Of a DNA stretch of 64,000 nucleotides, positions 56,313 through 62,052 are shown in pieces. The DNA comes from a virus: positions 1 through 64,000 of IMG/VR virus record IMGVR_UViG_3300037587_000923; one strand, written 5' to 3'. Numbering within the stretch: position 1 is the stretch's first letter; each line of letters opens with the position of its first letter. Under the pieces are notes generated by a model. The model saw only the letters and a list, made by a program, of their open reading frames with translations, was not told the DNA's origin and made no database searches. Made by a program: the position numbers and the translations under genes.

Positions 56313-57448
56313 TGGAAAAAAATAAGGGTCTACAGCTAGTAGATAAAAAAGAAATGGCAGGGGGTGGTGGCTTTTCTCTTGCTCCAAGTAATCTAGGGGA
56401 GGCAATGGAGTTCGCCAAGATGATGGCTAATACAGACATGGTCCCTCGAGACTACGCTGGAAAACCTGCCAACATAATGATAGCTGTCCAGATGGGAGCC
56501 GAGATCGGCCTTAAACCGATGCAAAGCTTACAGAACATATCTGTGATCAACGGCAGGCCTAGCGTGTGGGGAGACACCGCAATTGCATTAGTCAGGGTTC
56601 ACCCTGACTGTGAGTCCATCAATGAATACCTTCTCGATAAAAATGGTAATAAGACCACTGGTACCGATTACGACACTGCAGTTTGTGTAGTGAAGAGGGC
56701 TGGCCAAGACGAAGAGATTAGGACTTTCAGCCTCGCTGACGCCAAAAAAGCCAGACTTATTGGTAAAACAGGGCCATGGTCTACTCACGAGAAGAGGATG
56801 TTGCAGCTGCGAGCTAGAGGTTTTGCTCTCCGTGATGTTTTTCCTGATGCATTAAAAGGCCTAGCGATTGCAGAGGAAGCTCAAGACTTACCACCTCGAG
56901 ACATCACTCCTGCCAGGGAAGAAGTATTGACTCCCGAGTTCGATGTGCCCGTCATAGACACCGGCCGTAGTGTTATGGTTGAGGAGGTTGCCAATGAAGA
57001 AGTAGTTGATGCCGCCACTGGAGAGATCACTGAGGGGTCAGAGCAGAAGTCTGAGTCTGCCAAGATCGAGGATGACGACGCTCTCGATGCAACCGTTACC
57101 GGCATGATCGATCGTATTGAGAATATCGGTAATAAGTTCGAGGGGGATAACTGGCTGACCAAACATAGCTCTGAAATCAACAAGCTTCCGGAAGATGCCA
57201 AGGAAGTTGTTATGAACAACTACAAGGGGAAAATGGAAGATCTGGCATCGGAGGGTGTGGCCAAGGAAGAGGGATCAAAAGGTGACGAAGACTCCCTTGT
57301 TCTTGACTACATAAAGAAGCTGGAAAAACCTAAGAGCCTGGAGGAGCTTGACGCTATATTTGACGAGGCCCAGAATAAAATAAAGACCGGCGCAAAGGTT
57401 GTCGCCCTTCGTAAGGTTAGAGACAAGAAGGCACAGGATTTTAAGTAA
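56312..57448 (+). CDS. recT: RecT-like single-strand annealing protein
   Basis: GKPANIMIAVQMGAEIGLKPMQSLQNISVINGRP, RMLQLRARGFALRDVFPDALKG. Confidence 0.85.
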   Translation: MEKNKGLQLVDKKEMAGGGGFSLAPSNLGEAMEFAKMMANTDMVPRDYAGKPANIMIAVQMGAEIGLKPMQSLQNISVINGRPSVWGDTAIALVRVHPDCESINEYLLDKNGNKTTGTDYDTAVCVVKRAGQDEEIRTFSLADAKKARLIGKTGPWSTHEKRMLQLRARGFALRDVFPDALKGLAIAEEAQDLPPRDITPAREEVLTPEFDVPVIDTGRSVMVEEVANEEVVDAATGEITEGSEQKSESAKIEDDDALDATVTGMIDRIENIGNKFEGDNWLTKHSSEINKLPEDAKEVVMNNYKGKMEDLASEGVAKEEGSKGDEDSLVLDYIKKLEKPKSLEELDAIFDEAQNKIKTGAKVVALRKVRDKKAQDFK

Positions 57449-57588
57449 CATTGGCATTGAGGGGCCGCCGGATTGATGGCAACCTCTTTCAAAAACTGAG
57501 TGGCGGGGAAAGCCGACTCCTGTAAAAATCAGACAGATGTTTAGGCGGTCACTCTCGAATAACTGGTTATGAAACTTGGAGGTAGAAA

Positions 57589-57789
57589 ATGAACACTACA
57601 GAGCAACGCATGGCGGCAATATTTAACGAGTGGGCAAAACGTTATTCTGAGAACCCTGACGCTTTCGGGCCTATATTTGATGATGAGGGGAAGCCGGTCA
57701 CCGACTATGGAGTAAGATGCGCACGCTATTTCAAAAAGGTAGCCGATGAAATGGACAGCAAGGGGATATTACCCGCACCTGTTTCATAA
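57589..57789 (+). CDS. cassette 1 hypothetical protein
   Basis: ends gttatga/tcataac. Confidence 0.7.
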   Translation: MNTTEQRMAAIFNEWAKRYSENPDAFGPIFDDEGKPVTDYGVRCARYFKKVADEMDSKGILPAPVS

Positions 57790-57867
57790 CGCTTGAGGTA
57801 AGCGGAACGAGCGTAGCGAGTTTCCCACTTGAGCGAATTGTTATGTTGAAACTTTTAACTATAGGAG

Positions 57868-58200
57868 ATGCTGATAATGACACCTGAAATTAATAAAAAA
57901 TATTTAATTACGACCGATAATTGGTTTTTGGCACCTGATGGGAATAGTTATCGCGCAGTATTTGGAACTGTCATAGGAATACAAACAGACGAAAATACAT
58001 TGGGAGTTAAAACGAATAGAAGCTCGACAAACTGGTATGTTGCTATCGGGAATATGTTGATCGCTGGTTGTCAAATACATTATGTAATCCAAGTGGATGA
58101 GGTAAGCTTTAACGCACCTAATAGAGAAATAGAGCACGATGGTAAATTAACTAAAGAGAGGGAAAGCATAACAAGAATATATAATGCCGATGAAACATAA
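57868..58200 (+). CDS. cassette 2 hypothetical protein
   Basis: ends gttatgtt/aacataac. Confidence 0.75.
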   Translation: MLIMTPEINKKYLITTDNWFLAPDGNSYRAVFGTVIGIQTDENTLGVKTNRSSTNWYVAIGNMLIAGCQIHYVIQVDEVSFNAPNREIEHDGKLTKERESITRIYNADET

Positions 58201-58234
58201 CGATTGAACTAAACTGCGGCGAAAGGAGAATATC

Positions 58235-58378
58235 ATGAAATGGGAATGTGGAAATTGTGGACACAAGGTTACTGAAAAAGAAACTGTTGAAGGTGGGAAT
58301 AAAGAATGGAAATGCCCTAAATGTTCTAATATCAATAAGCATGAAAAAAAGAAAAGCGCGTTGAGCCGTCAGATTTGA
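58235..58378 (+). CDS. 47-aa Zn-ribbon ORF nested inside attC
   Basis: AGGAG RBS; MKWECGNCG...WKCPKCS...SRQI*. Confidence 0.7.
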   Translation: MKWECGNCGHKVTEKETVEGGNKEWKCPKCSNINKHEKKKSALSRQI

Positions 58379-58416
58379 GTGACTGGGTTAGGCCGCACGA
58401 ACCTTAGGAGGTAAGT

Positions 58417-58605
58417 TTGGAAAAGCCAGAATATTTAAAAGATGAACATTTAAAATATCTAAATGAGCTGAAAGAAACCAAAATGGTACCCATGTTTGGA
58501 GCAGCATCTACCTTGAGATTATATTATGATTATCTGACAAAGGAGCAAGCCAGGAAAATATTAGCCTATTGGATAGACACATTTCAAGAGAGACATGCGG
58601 CATAA
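58417..58605 (+). CDS. cassette 3 hypothetical protein
   Basis: ends gttaggccgca/tgcggcataac. Confidence 0.7.
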   Translation: MEKPEYLKDEHLKYLNELKETKMVPMFGAASTLRLYYDYLTKEQARKILAYWIDTFQERHAA

Positions 58606-58646
58606 CAATTGAACTGTGCCGCTTGCAAAATTAAAGGAGAAAACCT

Positions 58647-58961
58647 ATGAGTGGAGTTATAGACTTACCCTGTGGATGCACAATGGATGATTATTCAGGA
58701 CTAGCACTTTATGTTTGCCAAGCGTGTAGAGAGCGCAAGAAGAGGCAAGAGACTTCAGAACGCGACAGCGTTTTGCAAGTCGGAACCAGTGATGGGTTAG
58801 ACTGCCCCCTTTGTGCGAAGATGGGGCCGAAAGAAGTTTATGAAAAGTGGGGCTTTGATTATGAAGCAAGATATAAAGACACATGCAAAGCGCATAGACC
58901 GCTAATGCTTGAGAGAATGGAAGATGGACTGAACAAGTTGAAAGAGCTTCTGGCAGACTAA
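58647..58961 (+). CDS. Cys-rich ORF starting in the attC loop and reading through into cassette 4
   Basis: AGGAG RBS in loop; reads across gttagac. Confidence 0.65.
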   Translation: MSGVIDLPCGCTMDDYSGLALYVCQACRERKKRQETSERDSVLQVGTSDGLDCPLCAKMGPKEVYEKWGFDYEARYKDTCKAHRPLMLERMEDGLNKLKELLAD

Positions 58962-59317
58962 CAAGACAAGCTAAGGGGCTTGAACGAACGCAGTGAGAGA
59001 AAGTCCAAGGAGTGAAACGACTGTCTTTGAGCGCCTGGGTTATGTTTTTTGATATGACAGGGCAAAAAATCGGAGGTTATTATGGACGACATAGCAATAA
59101 ATGAAGGTCAAAAGATATTTGAAGAAAGATATAAAAAGGGATTTCCAAAAGTGATATTTGGGGAGACGCACATCTCAATTCCTTGCACTTGCGACGATGG
59201 CGGTGGGCCTATTCACTGGGCAACAGTGCAGAACAACATAAGATCGATAGAAGAACATTTCCGGCATGAGGAGACTTTGCGTGAATTAAGGAAAATGGAT
59301 AGGGACAAAACATAACG
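58959..59317. repeat. exact 359-bp duplication (copy 1): attC + gene
   Basis: appears identical to 61287-61645 by eye; encoded proteins identical. Confidence 0.9.
59082..59315 (+). CDS. cassette 5 hypothetical protein
   Basis: identical to 61410..61643. Confidence 0.7.
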   Translation: MDDIAINEGQKIFEERYKKGFPKVIFGETHISIPCTCDDGGGPIHWATVQNNIRSIEEHFRHEETLRELRKMDRDKT

Positions 59318-59421
59318 TTGCCCTTAACCCGCACCTGAGCCAAGTTCCTATGAAATTGGAGACACCTTTAGGTGTCGGTGGTTCAAGGGCTTGGTTATAA
59401 AACTTATCTTACGGAGGACTT

Positions 59422-59589
59422 ATGAAAGCTGAAATAAAGAAAGATGGATTTATTTGGATAACCGCTGAAGACGCAACAGAGGCATTCGCGCTTAATCATT
59501 TAGTGCCAGTTGGTGACAAGGCGGAGGTGTGTAAAGAGTGCAACCAGGTTAAAATACCCGTTGTTATAGATGCGAGCGTATTAAACTAG
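59422..59589 (+). CDS. cassette 6 hypothetical protein (55 aa)
   Basis: GGAGG RBS; ends gttataaaact/agttttataac. Confidence 0.65.
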   Translation: MKAEIKKDGFIWITAEDATEAFALNHLVPVGDKAEVCKECNQVKIPVVIDASVLN

Positions 59590-59681
59590 GCAGTTTTATA
59601 ACGAACAAGTTAAAGGGACGCTGGAACAGCGTTCCGCTTTGAACGCCTGGTTCTGAGGCGTGTAACTTAAAAGGAGAAGAC

Positions 59682-59813
59682 ATGAGACTGATAATTTTAA
59701 CACTTGGAATATGGGCATTGATGCATGTTGGATTTGACTTCGACTGGATGAGGGTTTTATGGACTATGGGGCTGACTGTTTATGCCGCATGGTATGATTT
59801 AATAAAGCCTTAG
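59682..59813 (+). CDS. cassette 7 small membrane protein (43 aa)
   Basis: AGGAG RBS; hydrophobic; ends gttctgaggc/gccttagaac. Confidence 0.6.
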   Translation: MRLIILTLGIWALMHVGFDFDWMRVLWTMGLTVYAAWYDLIKP

Positions 59814-59900
59814 AACGCCTGAGGTAAGCGGAAGCCGGAACGGCTTTCCGACTTGAGCGATTTGTTAGTTTGGATCTTGACTTTAAGGAGAGGCGACTAA

Positions 59901-60752
59901 ATGGCAAGAATTAAGTATACACAATGTATGGTAAGAGACTGCGAAAAGCCCCATCTATCTAAAGGCTTCTGTAATAGGCATTATCAGCAAATGTGGAAGC
60001 ATGGACGCATTCTGCCTGATGCGGTGCCTATTGAAGACTTGGCCGGAGAGTTATGGGCTGACATTGAAGAGGCTGAAGGGTATCAAGTTAGCAATATGGG
60101 GCGTGTTAAGTCTCTTGTGGGCCGTGGCGGGTTAATAAAGCCACAGATCGAACAAAGGGGGCACATGAATACCCCTAAGAAGCGTGTCTATTTAGACAGG
60201 AGGGCAACAAGAGGCTGGGTTAAATTCTTGTATGTTCACCTAGAGGTAGCCAGGGCCTTTATCCCTAATAAGTTTGACAGCGCCCACACGACCTTTAAAA
60301 ACGGGGATGCCTTAGACTGCCGTGCTGATAATATCGAATGGTGGTGGGAGAATCCACCTGTAGATGATGATGGGTTGATTCAGTTTAGAAAGTCGGTTCA
60401 TTCTGAATTAGGGAAAAAGGTTCTGGCCTTTATTGATGGCAACCAGTCTGCCCTCGATAGTTTCGTAATGCAAAAGACTGACAAGATGAGGAAAATACTA
60501 CAGAGTAAATTCAAAGGGGTCTGCGGAGACAATGTAAACGAAGCGGTGCACGTTGCTTTCAGTGAAGGCATGAGAGACATTAAACGCGGATTGCTTAGGG
60601 CAGACACACATATAGAAAACTGGTTCCTTCGGATTGCAGAGAACCAACTATTGGATGATATTAAAAAGAACAAGCACACTACATCTCAATGGGGCTGCAA
60701 TGGTAATGGCGACGAGTTCGACAAATTTGATTTAATGGCGGCAACAAACTAA
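59901..60752 (+). CDS. cassette 8 NUMOD4/HNH-like protein with sigma region-2-like C-terminus
   Basis: YQVSNMGRVKS, VHLEVARAFIPN, DNIEW; WFLRIAENQLLD. Confidence 0.75.
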   Translation: MARIKYTQCMVRDCEKPHLSKGFCNRHYQQMWKHGRILPDAVPIEDLAGELWADIEEAEGYQVSNMGRVKSLVGRGGLIKPQIEQRGHMNTPKKRVYLDRRATRGWVKFLYVHLEVARAFIPNKFDSAHTTFKNGDALDCRADNIEWWWENPPVDDDGLIQFRKSVHSELGKKVLAFIDGNQSALDSFVMQKTDKMRKILQSKFKGVCGDNVNEAVHVAFSEGMRDIKRGLLRADTHIENWFLRIAENQLLDDIKKNKHTTSQWGCNGNGDEFDKFDLMAATN

Positions 60753-60857
60753 CTATGAATTAACCAGTGGCCCGACCAAGCCACACTGAAAACGGACACG
60801 CCTCTTGCCATCTGGTTGAATGGCGTGTTATAAATTTTGCATTAGGAGGGTAATTAG

Positions 60858-61289
60858 ATGAGAGGATATGCGTGTATAGGGTTGGATAACCCCAAGGCGG
60901 CAGTTAACGTAGGATCGGCTTTGAGAGCCGCAGGGTGCTATGGGGCTGCAATGGTGGCTATGACGGGCAACCGGAGCGGAAAGACACCCACTGACACCAT
61001 GAAGCAGTATCGACATAGGCCGTTGTTGCGCGTTGAAAATTTGAAAGATGTTATTCCTTATGACTGCGTGCCTGTGGCAGTTGATTTGATAGAGGGAGCT
61101 ATTCCATTGCCAGAGTATGAACACCCCGAAAGAGCCTTTTATATCTTCGGGGCTGAAGATGCCACCCTGGGCGAAAGAGTGACATCTTGGTGCAGGGACA
61201 CTATATATATTCCCACTAACGGTTGCATGAATCTAGCAGCAACGGTTAATGTGGTGCTATATGACCGGCTTGTTAAGCAAAATTTATAA
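60858..61289 (+). CDS. cassette 9 SpoU/TrmH-family RNA methyltransferase
   Basis: NVGSALRAA, YIFGAED, IYIP...MNLAATVNVVLYDR. Confidence 0.88.
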   Translation: MRGYACIGLDNPKAAVNVGSALRAAGCYGAAMVAMTGNRSGKTPTDTMKQYRHRPLLRVENLKDVIPYDCVPVAVDLIEGAIPLPEYEHPERAFYIFGAEDATLGERVTSWCRDTIYIPTNGCMNLAATVNVVLYDRLVKQNL

Positions 61290-61645
61290 CAAGACAAGCT
61301 AAGGGGCTTGAACGAACGCAGTGAGAGAAAGTCCAAGGAGTGAAACGACTGTCTTTGAGCGCCTGGGTTATGTTTTTTGATATGACAGGGCAAAAAATCG
61401 GAGGTTATTATGGACGACATAGCAATAAATGAAGGTCAAAAGATATTTGAAGAAAGATATAAAAAGGGATTTCCAAAAGTGATATTTGGGGAGACGCACA
61501 TCTCAATTCCTTGCACTTGCGACGATGGCGGTGGGCCTATTCACTGGGCAACAGTGCAGAACAACATAAGATCGATAGAAGAACATTTCCGGCATGAGGA
61601 GACTTTGCGTGAATTAAGGAAAATGGATAGGGACAAAACATAACG
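61287..61645. repeat. exact 359-bp duplication (copy 2)
   Basis: appears identical to 58959-59317. Confidence 0.9.
61410..61643 (+). CDS. cassette 10 (duplicate of cassette 5)
   Basis: identical protein. Confidence 0.7.
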   Translation: MDDIAINEGQKIFEERYKKGFPKVIFGETHISIPCTCDDGGGPIHWATVQNNIRSIEEHFRHEETLRELRKMDRDKT

Positions 61646-61680
61646 ATTGACTATATGGACATTTAATGTTGGTGTGAATT

Positions 61681-62052
61681 GTGAATAAGTATTATAAGCA
61701 AGTAAAATATAGACAGAATCAGAGAGATAAAAAAGAATGTTACCGTTTAAATTCTACTGATACGATTAGGGAATCTTATTATCAGCCACCTGAATTTAGA
61801 GGATTGAGGATATATGGAGATTGTGATCTCGGTTATCTTAGACTTATTTACATTTCTCTATGGGAATGTGGACGTTTAGATTCCTATTACATACGCAACG
61901 AAAAAGTAGAAAATATTGGTAAGCGTCCAAAATTAAATGATGACAATAGCGATTGGTGGATTGACAGTAATGGAAATCGTAAAAAATATGGCAAGGTTAA
62001 TCTTGATAAGAAAATAAGAGAACTGATGCCGAATATAAGGAGGGCGGATTGA
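61681..62052 (+). CDS. hypothetical protein
   Basis: AT-rich ORF coupled to next gene. Confidence 0.5.
   Translation: MNKYYKQVKYRQNQRDKKECYRLNSTDTIRESYYQPPEFRGLRIYGDCDLGYLRLIYISLWECGRLDSYYIRNEKVENIGKRPKLNDDNSDWWIDSNGNRKKYGKVNLDKKIRELMPNIRRAD

Follow-up and report, generated by a model that had tools for sequence, protein, structure and literature searches.

The + strand of a marine-sediment phage genome carries, at positions 58195-58393 of the stretch analyzed here, what appears to be a recombination site of the attC type with a complete small gene nested in its loop. This stretch of 64,000 nucleotides (nt), called the window throughout, represents the first 64 kb of the 82-kb virus record IMGVR_UViG_3300037587_000923 from IMG/VR, for which CheckV gave a completeness of 72%. 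Judged from its sequence, one attC-type site with a real nested gene, located in a phage CALIN (cluster of attC sites lacking integron integrases), is the interpretation that we favor with modest confidence.

Downstream of a RecT-like gene, small genes on the + strand alternate with imperfect inverted repeats starting with (A/T)TAAC and ending with GTTA(T/G). Sites were called with our own scanner together with a reading of the letters. In this way ten attC-type sites were found in a row at 57446-61375, and with at least 2 attC sites in a row and no nearby integron integrase this region corresponds to the definition of a CALIN. The site at 58195-58393 is composed of the following parts, including a ribosome-binding site (RBS) and an open reading frame (ORF) of 47 amino acids (aa). 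Its R boxes were compared with the consensus RYYYAAC/GTTRRRY as quoted in passages of PMC9892861 and PMC4889954.

58195-58201, + strand: 5' R box ACATAAC, 6 of 7 positions matching RYYYAAC
58202-58208, + strand: unpaired central spacer GATTGAA, 5' side
58209-58220, + strand: 5' arm CTAAACTGCGGC, L box and distal stem
58221-58364, + strand: loop (variable terminal structure) of 144 nt, with the RBS and most of the ORF
58224-58228, + strand: AGGAG RBS, 6 nt upstream of the ATG at 58235
58235-58378, + strand: 47-aa CxxC...CxxC ORF, predicted zinc ribbon, with its stop codon TGA (58376-58378) within the 3' arm
58365-58379, + strand: 3' arm GCCGTCAGATTTGAG, with G58377, A58373 and T58369 unpaired
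58380-58386, + strand: unpaired central spacer TGACTGG, 3' side
58387-58393, + strand: 3' R box GTTAGGC, 7 of 7 positions matching GTTRRRY

The two arms form 12 Watson-Crick pairs, with all 12 arm pairs kept, and G, A and T remain unpaired, all three on the 3' arm of the + strand, spaced 4+4, with 8 nt from G to T. The last five codons and the stop of the loop ORF constitute the 3' arm, and the G of its TGA stop is at the same time the first unpaired base (58377). An initial annotation made from the letters had described two arms enclosing an AGGAG RBS and a 47-aa CxxC...CxxC ORF whose last codons and stop were the right arm; direct reading of 58195-58393 bore out both statements. Compared with established features of attC sites, inverted R boxes of the type AAC...GTT are present, and the central spacer is open, GATTGAA and TGACTGG being non-complementary with 6 nt per side unpaired in the constrained DNA fold and in the minimum free energy (MFE) structure of the RNA. 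According to Bouvier et al. (2009; PMC2727003), the extrahelical bases of attC are confined to one arm; a conserved G belongs to the L box and is followed by a T at a distance of 6 to 8 nt, as with G16, T20 and T24 in the Vibrio cholerae repeat (VCR). One-sided extrahelical bases, an L-box G and a T within this distance are likewise found at 58195-58393. In the aligned sites of the array (n = 7) the AAC box is followed by a spacer of 4-8 nt, by 1-5 pairs (3 in 5/7) and by an unpaired base on the 3' arm, which is G in five sites and C in two, and all further unpaired bases again belong to the 3' arm. The row of the site at 58959 is shifted by one base in this alignment.

Both ends of the site were also found together elsewhere. 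Scanning IMG/VR with the 15-mer of the 5' end, CATAACRATTGAACT, yielded at least 115 loci, nearly all of them chance matches; among the matches listed, those in the contigs L012/L030, L014, L020 and L028 were site-like. There, CATAACRATTGAACT at the 5' end and GAGTGAY..GGTTA at the 3' end were combined around shorter interiors with complementary arms of their own, namely 134 nt in L014, 87 nt in L028, 56 nt in L012/L030 and 125 nt in L020. The left and right ends of 58195-58393 therefore look like two halves of one kind of site. The earlier assumption that the two arms belong to one attC-type site gains support from these same ends around the 134-nt L014 site and from the geometry shared within the array, and both support the view that the arms of 58195-58393 would behave as halves of one site.

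The enclosed ORF looks coding, as judged by its RBS, codon usage, zinc-ribbon motif and predicted fold. Using the codon table of the phage, its frame scored best of all six with 0.201 bits per codon. True-frame windows of 47 codons gave a mean of 0.271 (standard deviation 0.14), and 0.64% of the wrong-frame windows reached 0.201. The two CxxC motifs reside at residues 5-8 and 27-30. The arrangement CxxC-(8-30)-CxxC is rare, with 4 occurrences in 614 stop-to-stop frames of 40-70 aa and 137 in 20000 random windows. In Pfam, Zn_ribbon_TiaS reached 22.3 bits, just under its cut-off of 27.3, and a RanBP-type match, likewise below threshold, had an E-value of 0.0025. An AlphaFold2 single-sequence model contained four short strands (residues 2-4, 11-13, 24-26 and 33-35) at a mean pLDDT (predicted local distance difference test) of 73.3. 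Compared with the PDB by Foldseek, this model found nothing with an E-value below 0.7, and the top rows were zinc ribbons. The best PHROGs match (E-value 0.0054) was a family of unknown function. The nearest clusters in the ESM Atlas consisted of small zinc-ribbon proteins, some of them Mu Com-like, with values of 0.92-0.93, which lie within the chance range of the tool and are to be taken as a lead only.

[quoted passage not shown] The canonical cassette, with the gene on the attC top strand followed by attC and with Pc (the cassette promoter) next to intI, was not found in this row. Furthermore, an exact duplication of 359 nt (58959-59317 = 61287-61645) starts with TAAC and ends with ATAACG, which fits a + strand crossover at the AAC box and a mobile unit in which the gene follows the site. 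The reversed layout proposed in the initial annotation thus agrees with the position of the extra bases and with the ends of the duplication. The site is flanked by two further small genes.

57868-58200, + strand: upstream cassette ORF of 110 aa, matching PHROG phrog_22562 (unknown function) with an E-value of 1.5e-23
58417-58605, + strand: ORF of 62 aa with its own RBS (TAGGAGG), starting 38 nt past the stop of the loop ORF, its TAA stop lying within the next ATAAC box

The ATAAC box of the 58195-58393 site includes the TAA stop (58198-58200) of the 110-aa gene upstream, and a crossover of the type AA|C would consequently fall at the last base of this stop codon. From the ends of the duplication and from Bouvier et al. 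(2009; PMC2727003), we infer a crossover between A58200 and C58201. The 405 nt from C58201 to A58605 would then represent one two-gene cassette, containing the site, the gene in its loop and the 62-aa gene. This bears on the earlier proposal that the recombination site itself carries cargo: the enclosed ORF indeed looks like a real small gene, but the arrangement is inseparable from a two-gene cassette whose first gene happens to lie between the arms. A TAA stop of the upstream gene within the ATAAC box was regularly observed, namely in the window at 57787-57789, 58198-58200, 58603-58605 and 59313-59315, at L201:9336-9338 (L201 covers the record beyond the window) and in L014.

Two more sites of this phage have long loops with a start codon inside.

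58600-58802, + strand: sibling site with a long loop and an identical 5' end (CATAACAATTGAACT); its arms form 17 Watson-Crick pairs and one mismatch, and 2 bases of the 3' arm stay unpaired
73337-73539 of the genome (L201 9337-9539; within 73331-73545, L201:9331-9545), beyond the window: third long-loop site with ACATAAC, spacer, arms and GGTTAT

The loop of the sibling site (58632-58771) measures about 140 nt and contains AAGGAG and the start of ORF 58647-58961. This ORF of 104 aa leaves the loop via the 3' arm and continues across the GTT box of the site. The third site has a loop of 143 nt (L201:9367-9509), and its 3' arm of 24 nt pairs with a 5' arm of 19 nt, the 5 unpaired bases all belonging to the 3' arm. 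It contains AGGAGGAG and a complete Cys-rich ORF of 53 codons, the TAA of which directly follows the GGTTA box, with the next gene 4 nt further on. Its MFE structure on both strands is the attC-type fold, with a folding probability (pfold) of 0.26-0.30. In the protein collection this ORF is represented by a version of 67 aa, which uses an upstream ATG and spans the whole third site; homologues of the 53-aa product were not found. In the row 57446-61375 a start codon inside the loop was observed in 2 of the 10 sites, and in the other 8 the next start lies 20-39 nt past the GTT box. L020 likewise offers an RBS and ATG in the loop of two sites, one ORF comprising 32 codons and one continuing into the cassette. 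A translation start inside the loop hence recurs in two further sites of the phage genome and in two of L020. The three coding loops of the phage are near-equal in length (144, about 140 and 143 nt), though their sequences and peptides are unlike. By BLASTP, the loop ORF and the N-terminus of the protein encoded at 58647-58961 were not homologous (E-value 1.8).

Contigs of four public sequencing runs, among them X2 from marine sediment and X3 from a cold seep, were aligned to 57000-62000. One X2 contig of 242 nt (depth 3.4) joins 58633 to 58745 and represents the sibling site minus 111 nt of its loop. The gap (58634-58744) covers the RBS and roughly the first 33 codons of ORF 58647-58961. The match extends from 58607, right after the AAC box, to 58800, with unlike flanks on both sides and 27 letters on the short side of the joint. 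This one low-depth contig weakly suggests that one and the same site can occur with or without part of its loop. A 166-nt contig of X3 contained only 58739-58799 of the sibling site. In the contigs of these runs no joint or variant was seen at 58195-58393, for which X4 provided one identical contig of 151 nt (58181-58331).

Several observations weigh against one attC-type site with a nested gene, and they were considered together with the alternative explanations to which they lend weight. The first concerns the pairing of the arms. Arms were scored from the spacer ends with +1 per pair and -1.5 per mismatch or bulge. Among 40000 random pairs of genomic 20-mers, 69 reached the observed anchored score of 7.5; with the real left arm retained and the right arm drawn at random, 23 of 40000 did so. 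Because the first arm pairs are common to several array sites, the portion beyond them was tested separately. Past the shared L-box-like start (A-CTG-CGGC versus GCCG-T-CAG-A-T) the score was 5.0, which 492 and 285 of 40000 reached, respectively. If two unrelated half-sites are assumed, the complementarity beyond the shared start is thus significant at only about 1%. On the + strand of the 82-kb genome, 124 pairs of TAAC..GTTA occur at distances of 150-260 nt, and solely this site (8.5) and its neighbor 58603-58799 (12.5) scored at least 8.5. In block shuffles 7.5 was reached by 4 of 543 TAAC..GTTA pairs. When the AAC/GTT ends were relaxed and the arms lengthened, numerous chance pairs scoring at least 9 appeared elsewhere in the genome, mostly with other end boxes or with bulges on two arms. 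A chance pairing of the arms is unlikely; taken by themselves the arms are suggestive, not overwhelming, and much of the weight comes from their context.

These numbers bear on the explanation that 58195-58393 is not one site at all, the halves being left over from two sites of the family or paired by chance, with an ordinary zinc-ribbon gene in between. Since the first arm pairs (of the ACT.AA / TT.G.AGT type) are shared, any two halves from the array would pair there. The remaining complementarity stands at the chance level of about 1% given above, scores of 7.5 occur outside the array too, and the looser ends produce their many chance pairs. Such an origin would, however, have required two deletions leaving exactly one left and one right half. 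The three unpaired bases would have come to lie on the same arm, spaced 4+4 with G first, and the same two ends make one site in L014 and in L028. The other gene junctions examined in 57446-61375 have exactly one site each, the junction at 58195-58393 holds no alternative candidate, and in the same genome two additional loops of about 140 nt are enclosed by much stronger arms. We regard leftover halves or a chance pairing as very unlikely.

The second group of observations concerns folding and loop length. In unconstrained DNA folds the arms were absent from both strands, which were less structured than shuffles (z +1.67 for the + strand, and +1.48 for the - strand folded with 5-nt flanks). 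For the - strand, pfold amounted to 0.007 with the boxes enforced and 0.002 with boxes plus arm pairs. With the 3 AAC/GTT pairs enforced on the + strand, the MFE structure was formed by the predicted arms with three bulges, at -6.6 compared to -6.7 kcal/mol for the free MFE. The pfold of the + strand was 0.10 with the boxes and 0.03 with the boxes and all 12 arm pairs enforced, and four other sites of the array ranged from 0.001 to 0.78; the rows of 57784 and 58959 were left out, the G position given for the former being a T and the GTT used for the latter differing from that of the alignment. The loop has almost no competing structure, which places the + strand within this range. Using RNA parameters, the predicted structure of the + strand was both MFE and centroid, with z +0.66 relative to shuffles. 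As for length, natural attC loops are given as 3-100 nt in passages of PMC7439510 and as 20-100 nt in PMC4889954, and the 144 nt found here exceed both. According to the review PMC8946536, the length of the loop is nearly irrelevant if the DNA is single-stranded, up to 4 logs of recombination are lost in replicative conditions, and cruciform extrusion is limited to short loops. Bouvier et al. (PMC2727003) exchanged the 65-nt loop of VCR for a triplet and recombination changed only 1.6- to 2.4-fold. A long loop should mean rarer folding in replicating DNA, so that 58195-58393 is probably a weak site.

A site of this kind might also be dead, a gene having landed in the loop or the loop having grown, so that two former units are frozen as one block and the arms are a relic. 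A loop beyond the published natural range, with the sharp loss of recombination in replicating DNA, would agree with this, as would an arm of only 12 bp with 3 bulges that is missing from the unconstrained DNA MFE. The X2 contig without 111 nt of the sibling loop, by which loop content comes and goes, can be read in the same direction. On the other hand, a relic would still have preserved box, spacer, G-first bulges and 12 of 12 arm pairs. The pfold of the + strand is within that of the four other array sites, loop length hardly matters on single-stranded delivery (PMC8946536), and the site at 73.3 kb with its equally long loop folds as its MFE. Overall, we consider a dead site unlikely.

The third group comprises searches for relatives and for a recombinase. 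Sites with the same ends and an interior of 120-180 nt were found nowhere else in the IMG/VR viral contigs, and those with an interior of 150-180 nt not in the GTDB species genomes. A copy of the arms of this site around a short interior was absent from the IMG/VR viral contigs. In the GTDB genomes short-interior arms gave 80 matches; TAAC/GTTA boxes accompanied none of them, and an AAC/GTT due to chance accompanied one. No integron integrase was detected in the 82-kb record, itself 72% complete. Its only tyrosine recombinase (16848-17849) scored 26-27 bits with the IntI model, the cut-off of which is 265, and the best model was archaeal XerA with 55.8 versus 220. For the 47-aa protein no orthologue was found: a word-based search returned only the protein itself, and in an exhaustive HMMER search 19 of the 20 listed matches were other proteins, mostly long ones with several matched stretches. 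Multiple stretches in long proteins indicate generic zinc-finger repeats and not orthologues.

The lack of an orthologue in these searches is compatible with an attC-type site whose loop ORF acts mainly in cis, with ribosomes melting the mRNA hairpin to the benefit of the 62-aa gene and with a peptide of no importance. In this respect the RNA fold of the + strand, an attC-type hairpin as MFE and centroid, the stop codon within the 3' arm and the next start 38 nt on are all suitable. Moreover, the review PMC8876359 mentions as a precedent a short ORF in attC which relieves a stem-loop by termination-reinitiation. In L020 a 32-codon loop ORF without an obvious fold has the same position ahead of a methyltransferase-like gene. 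We nevertheless regard a purely cis-acting ORF as distinctly unlikely, given two CxxC pairs at zinc-ribbon spacing (the rare 4 of 614 frames), a confidently predicted small beta fold, the normal codon usage of the ORF, and a 62-aa gene which possesses a strong RBS (TAGGAGG) of its own; 47 codons are also far more than coupling requires. Finally, the pairing could act in RNA only, for instance by flanking a small cistron as an element for processing or stability, without any recombination of DNA. The structure as RNA MFE and centroid and the apparent co-transcription of the row would suit such an element. Shuffled sequences fold as RNA with energies at least as good, though, and conserved AAC/GTT boxes, an unpaired spacer and one-sided bulges are features of a recombinase substrate; the neighboring duplication, in addition, ends on these boxes. 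An RNA-only role appears extremely improbable.

For one attC-type site with a nested gene, the following course of events is proposed. The variable terminal region of an ordinary attC would have grown to 144 nt and would now hold an RBS and a 47-codon zinc-ribbon gene. In the single-stranded + strand, AAC would pair with GTT and the 12-bp arm with its bulges would form. R box, unpaired spacer and L box with the extrahelical G could then be offered to a tyrosine recombinase, either a host IntI or the phage's own Xer-like enzyme, with the cut between A58200 and C58201. As the recombinase would read only boxes, spacer and bulged stem, the loop would be free to code. Loop gene and 62-aa gene would travel together as a unit of 405 nt. 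As a side effect, translation of the loop gene might open the same hairpin in the mRNA just ahead of the start of the next gene.

Which parts of this arrangement are familiar was evaluated by comparison with known systems. With integron attC sites (VCR, attCaadA7; PMC2727003) the phage site shares the AAC/GTT boxes, the open spacer, the bulged L stem, the extrahelical G and the T 8 nt on, and with VCR in particular the three extrahelical bases spaced 4+4 and a variable terminal structure which the enzyme does not read. In contrast to the branched 65-nt loop of VCR, the phage loop comprises 144 nt, is unstructured and contains a complete gene with its own RBS. Furthermore, the phage genes are found on the bottom-strand side with the site preceding the gene, and no IntI is nearby. 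Qi et al. (2023; PMC9892861) described phage CALINs and showed that 5 of 6 tested attC sites of virulent phages recombined with IntI1. Common to both cases is a phage without IntI that carries attC-type sites and small cassettes in a row, whereas the cassettes there have the typical orientation or mixed directions within one phage. Section 3.4 of that paper makes no mention of genes inside a site or of loops this long.

The initial annotation had regarded attC loops as normally non-coding. This holds with the caveat that a short ORF within attC, which aids translation of the next cassette, is already on record (Jacquier et al., 2009, as summarized in the review PMC8876359). Such ORFs, and ORF-11 in attI1 (PMC8876359), resemble the phage ORF in having their own start inside a recombination site, and in the case of the short attC ORF translation would similarly open an mRNA stem-loop and end just before the next gene. 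However, those ORFs are short and act via being translated, while the phage ORF has 47 codons with a zinc-ribbon signature, its site is inverted, and it forms one unit with the gene that follows it. Nivina et al. (2020; PMC7439510) demonstrated that synthetic attC sites function inside coding sequence. There, too, attC structure and protein coding share the same DNA, as do the end of the phage ORF and the 3' arm. Those sites were engineered with loops of 3-21 nt within a larger gene, whereas the phage presents a natural whole gene in the loop. Phage CALINs, designed coding attC sites and short ORFs in attC sites are therefore already published. A natural attC-type site with a whole coding-looking gene in its loop, in an inverted array and with two siblings of near-equal loop length, was not found in the literature searched. 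A whole protein gene within the loop of a natural attC site was likewise not found described, although so limited a search would not prove its absence from print.

By convention, attC sites count as short hairpins without coding capacity, and an upper length is built into search tools. The default upper attC size of IntegronFinder is about 200 nt, a limit which 58195-58393 would just touch, and we know of no attC family in Rfam. If sites with long coding loops were functional, cassette arrays would be under-annotated, at least in phages. The recombination site itself would be a gene carrier, and the inverted order of site and then gene would give each unit a built-in translation start. The locus represents a natural test case for the constraints of loop length and coding on single-strand folding and recombination; a dead site would still illustrate the fusion of cassettes into multi-gene blocks. 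One step further, three loops of 140-144 nt in one phage and a sibling lacking 111 nt elsewhere would allow the site to carry its own gene with whatever cassette. The loop might then serve as a second, inner cargo bay, in which modules of 110-145 nt (RBS and small Cys-rich frame) are gained and lost, a nested modularity undescribed for integrons. We put this forward as a doubtful idea.

Some further observations were made on the row and its surroundings. Promoter-like sites were not enriched in 57300-59100 (5 versus 4.1 expected), nor were terminator-like sites (2 versus 1.1), so that the row is probably read within, and expressed as part of, a longer transcript. The motif ATAACRATTGAAC occurred 3 times in the window, not beyond the chance expectation of 3.15. 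Past the second copy of the duplication, at 61640-61680, the row closes with ATAACGATTGAC, which resembles the 5' end of the 58195-58393 site; its best right-half partner scored only 6.5 at a distance of 242 nt and was unconvincing. Near-identical DNA gave no match in the phage collection, and relatives of the RecT-like gene were only 25-28% identical (three loci), which indicates that no close kin of the phage was found.

Single sites of the row (57446-57569, 59312-59393, 59593-59671, 60750-60832 and 61281-61366) recurred in contigs of X2 and X3 with 85-100% identity and unlike flanks, the same hairpins hence adjoining different DNA in further samples from marine sediments and cold seeps. In L020:900-2500 (- strand), L028:2190-2990 and L014:8080-8222 (- strand), the extra bases of the attC-type sites again belong to the 3' arm on the strand that encodes the genes, and in L020 and L028 several further sites follow in a row. 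The methyltransferase-like gene after one of the L020 sites with a start in the loop was recognized by its NPPY motif, read by eye.

In the 104-aa ORF of the sibling site, the first Cys pairs (CxC, CxxC) are encoded by the loop, and another CxxC is located past the GTT box. The linker SVLQVGTSDGLD between these zinc-knuckle-like motifs is encoded by the 3' arm and the box of the site. Candidate relatives of this ORF at two loci matched only residues 57-78 inside large primase-like genes and were dropped as short-motif matches. For the 62-aa protein, homologues with 77% and 70% identity were found, none of them in the IMG/VR viral contigs. In an AT-rich metagenome contig without an attC-type site, a homologue with 48% identity (L117:2386-2571) is encoded directly after a helicase-like gene, and the 62-aa protein family is therefore not confined to cassettes.

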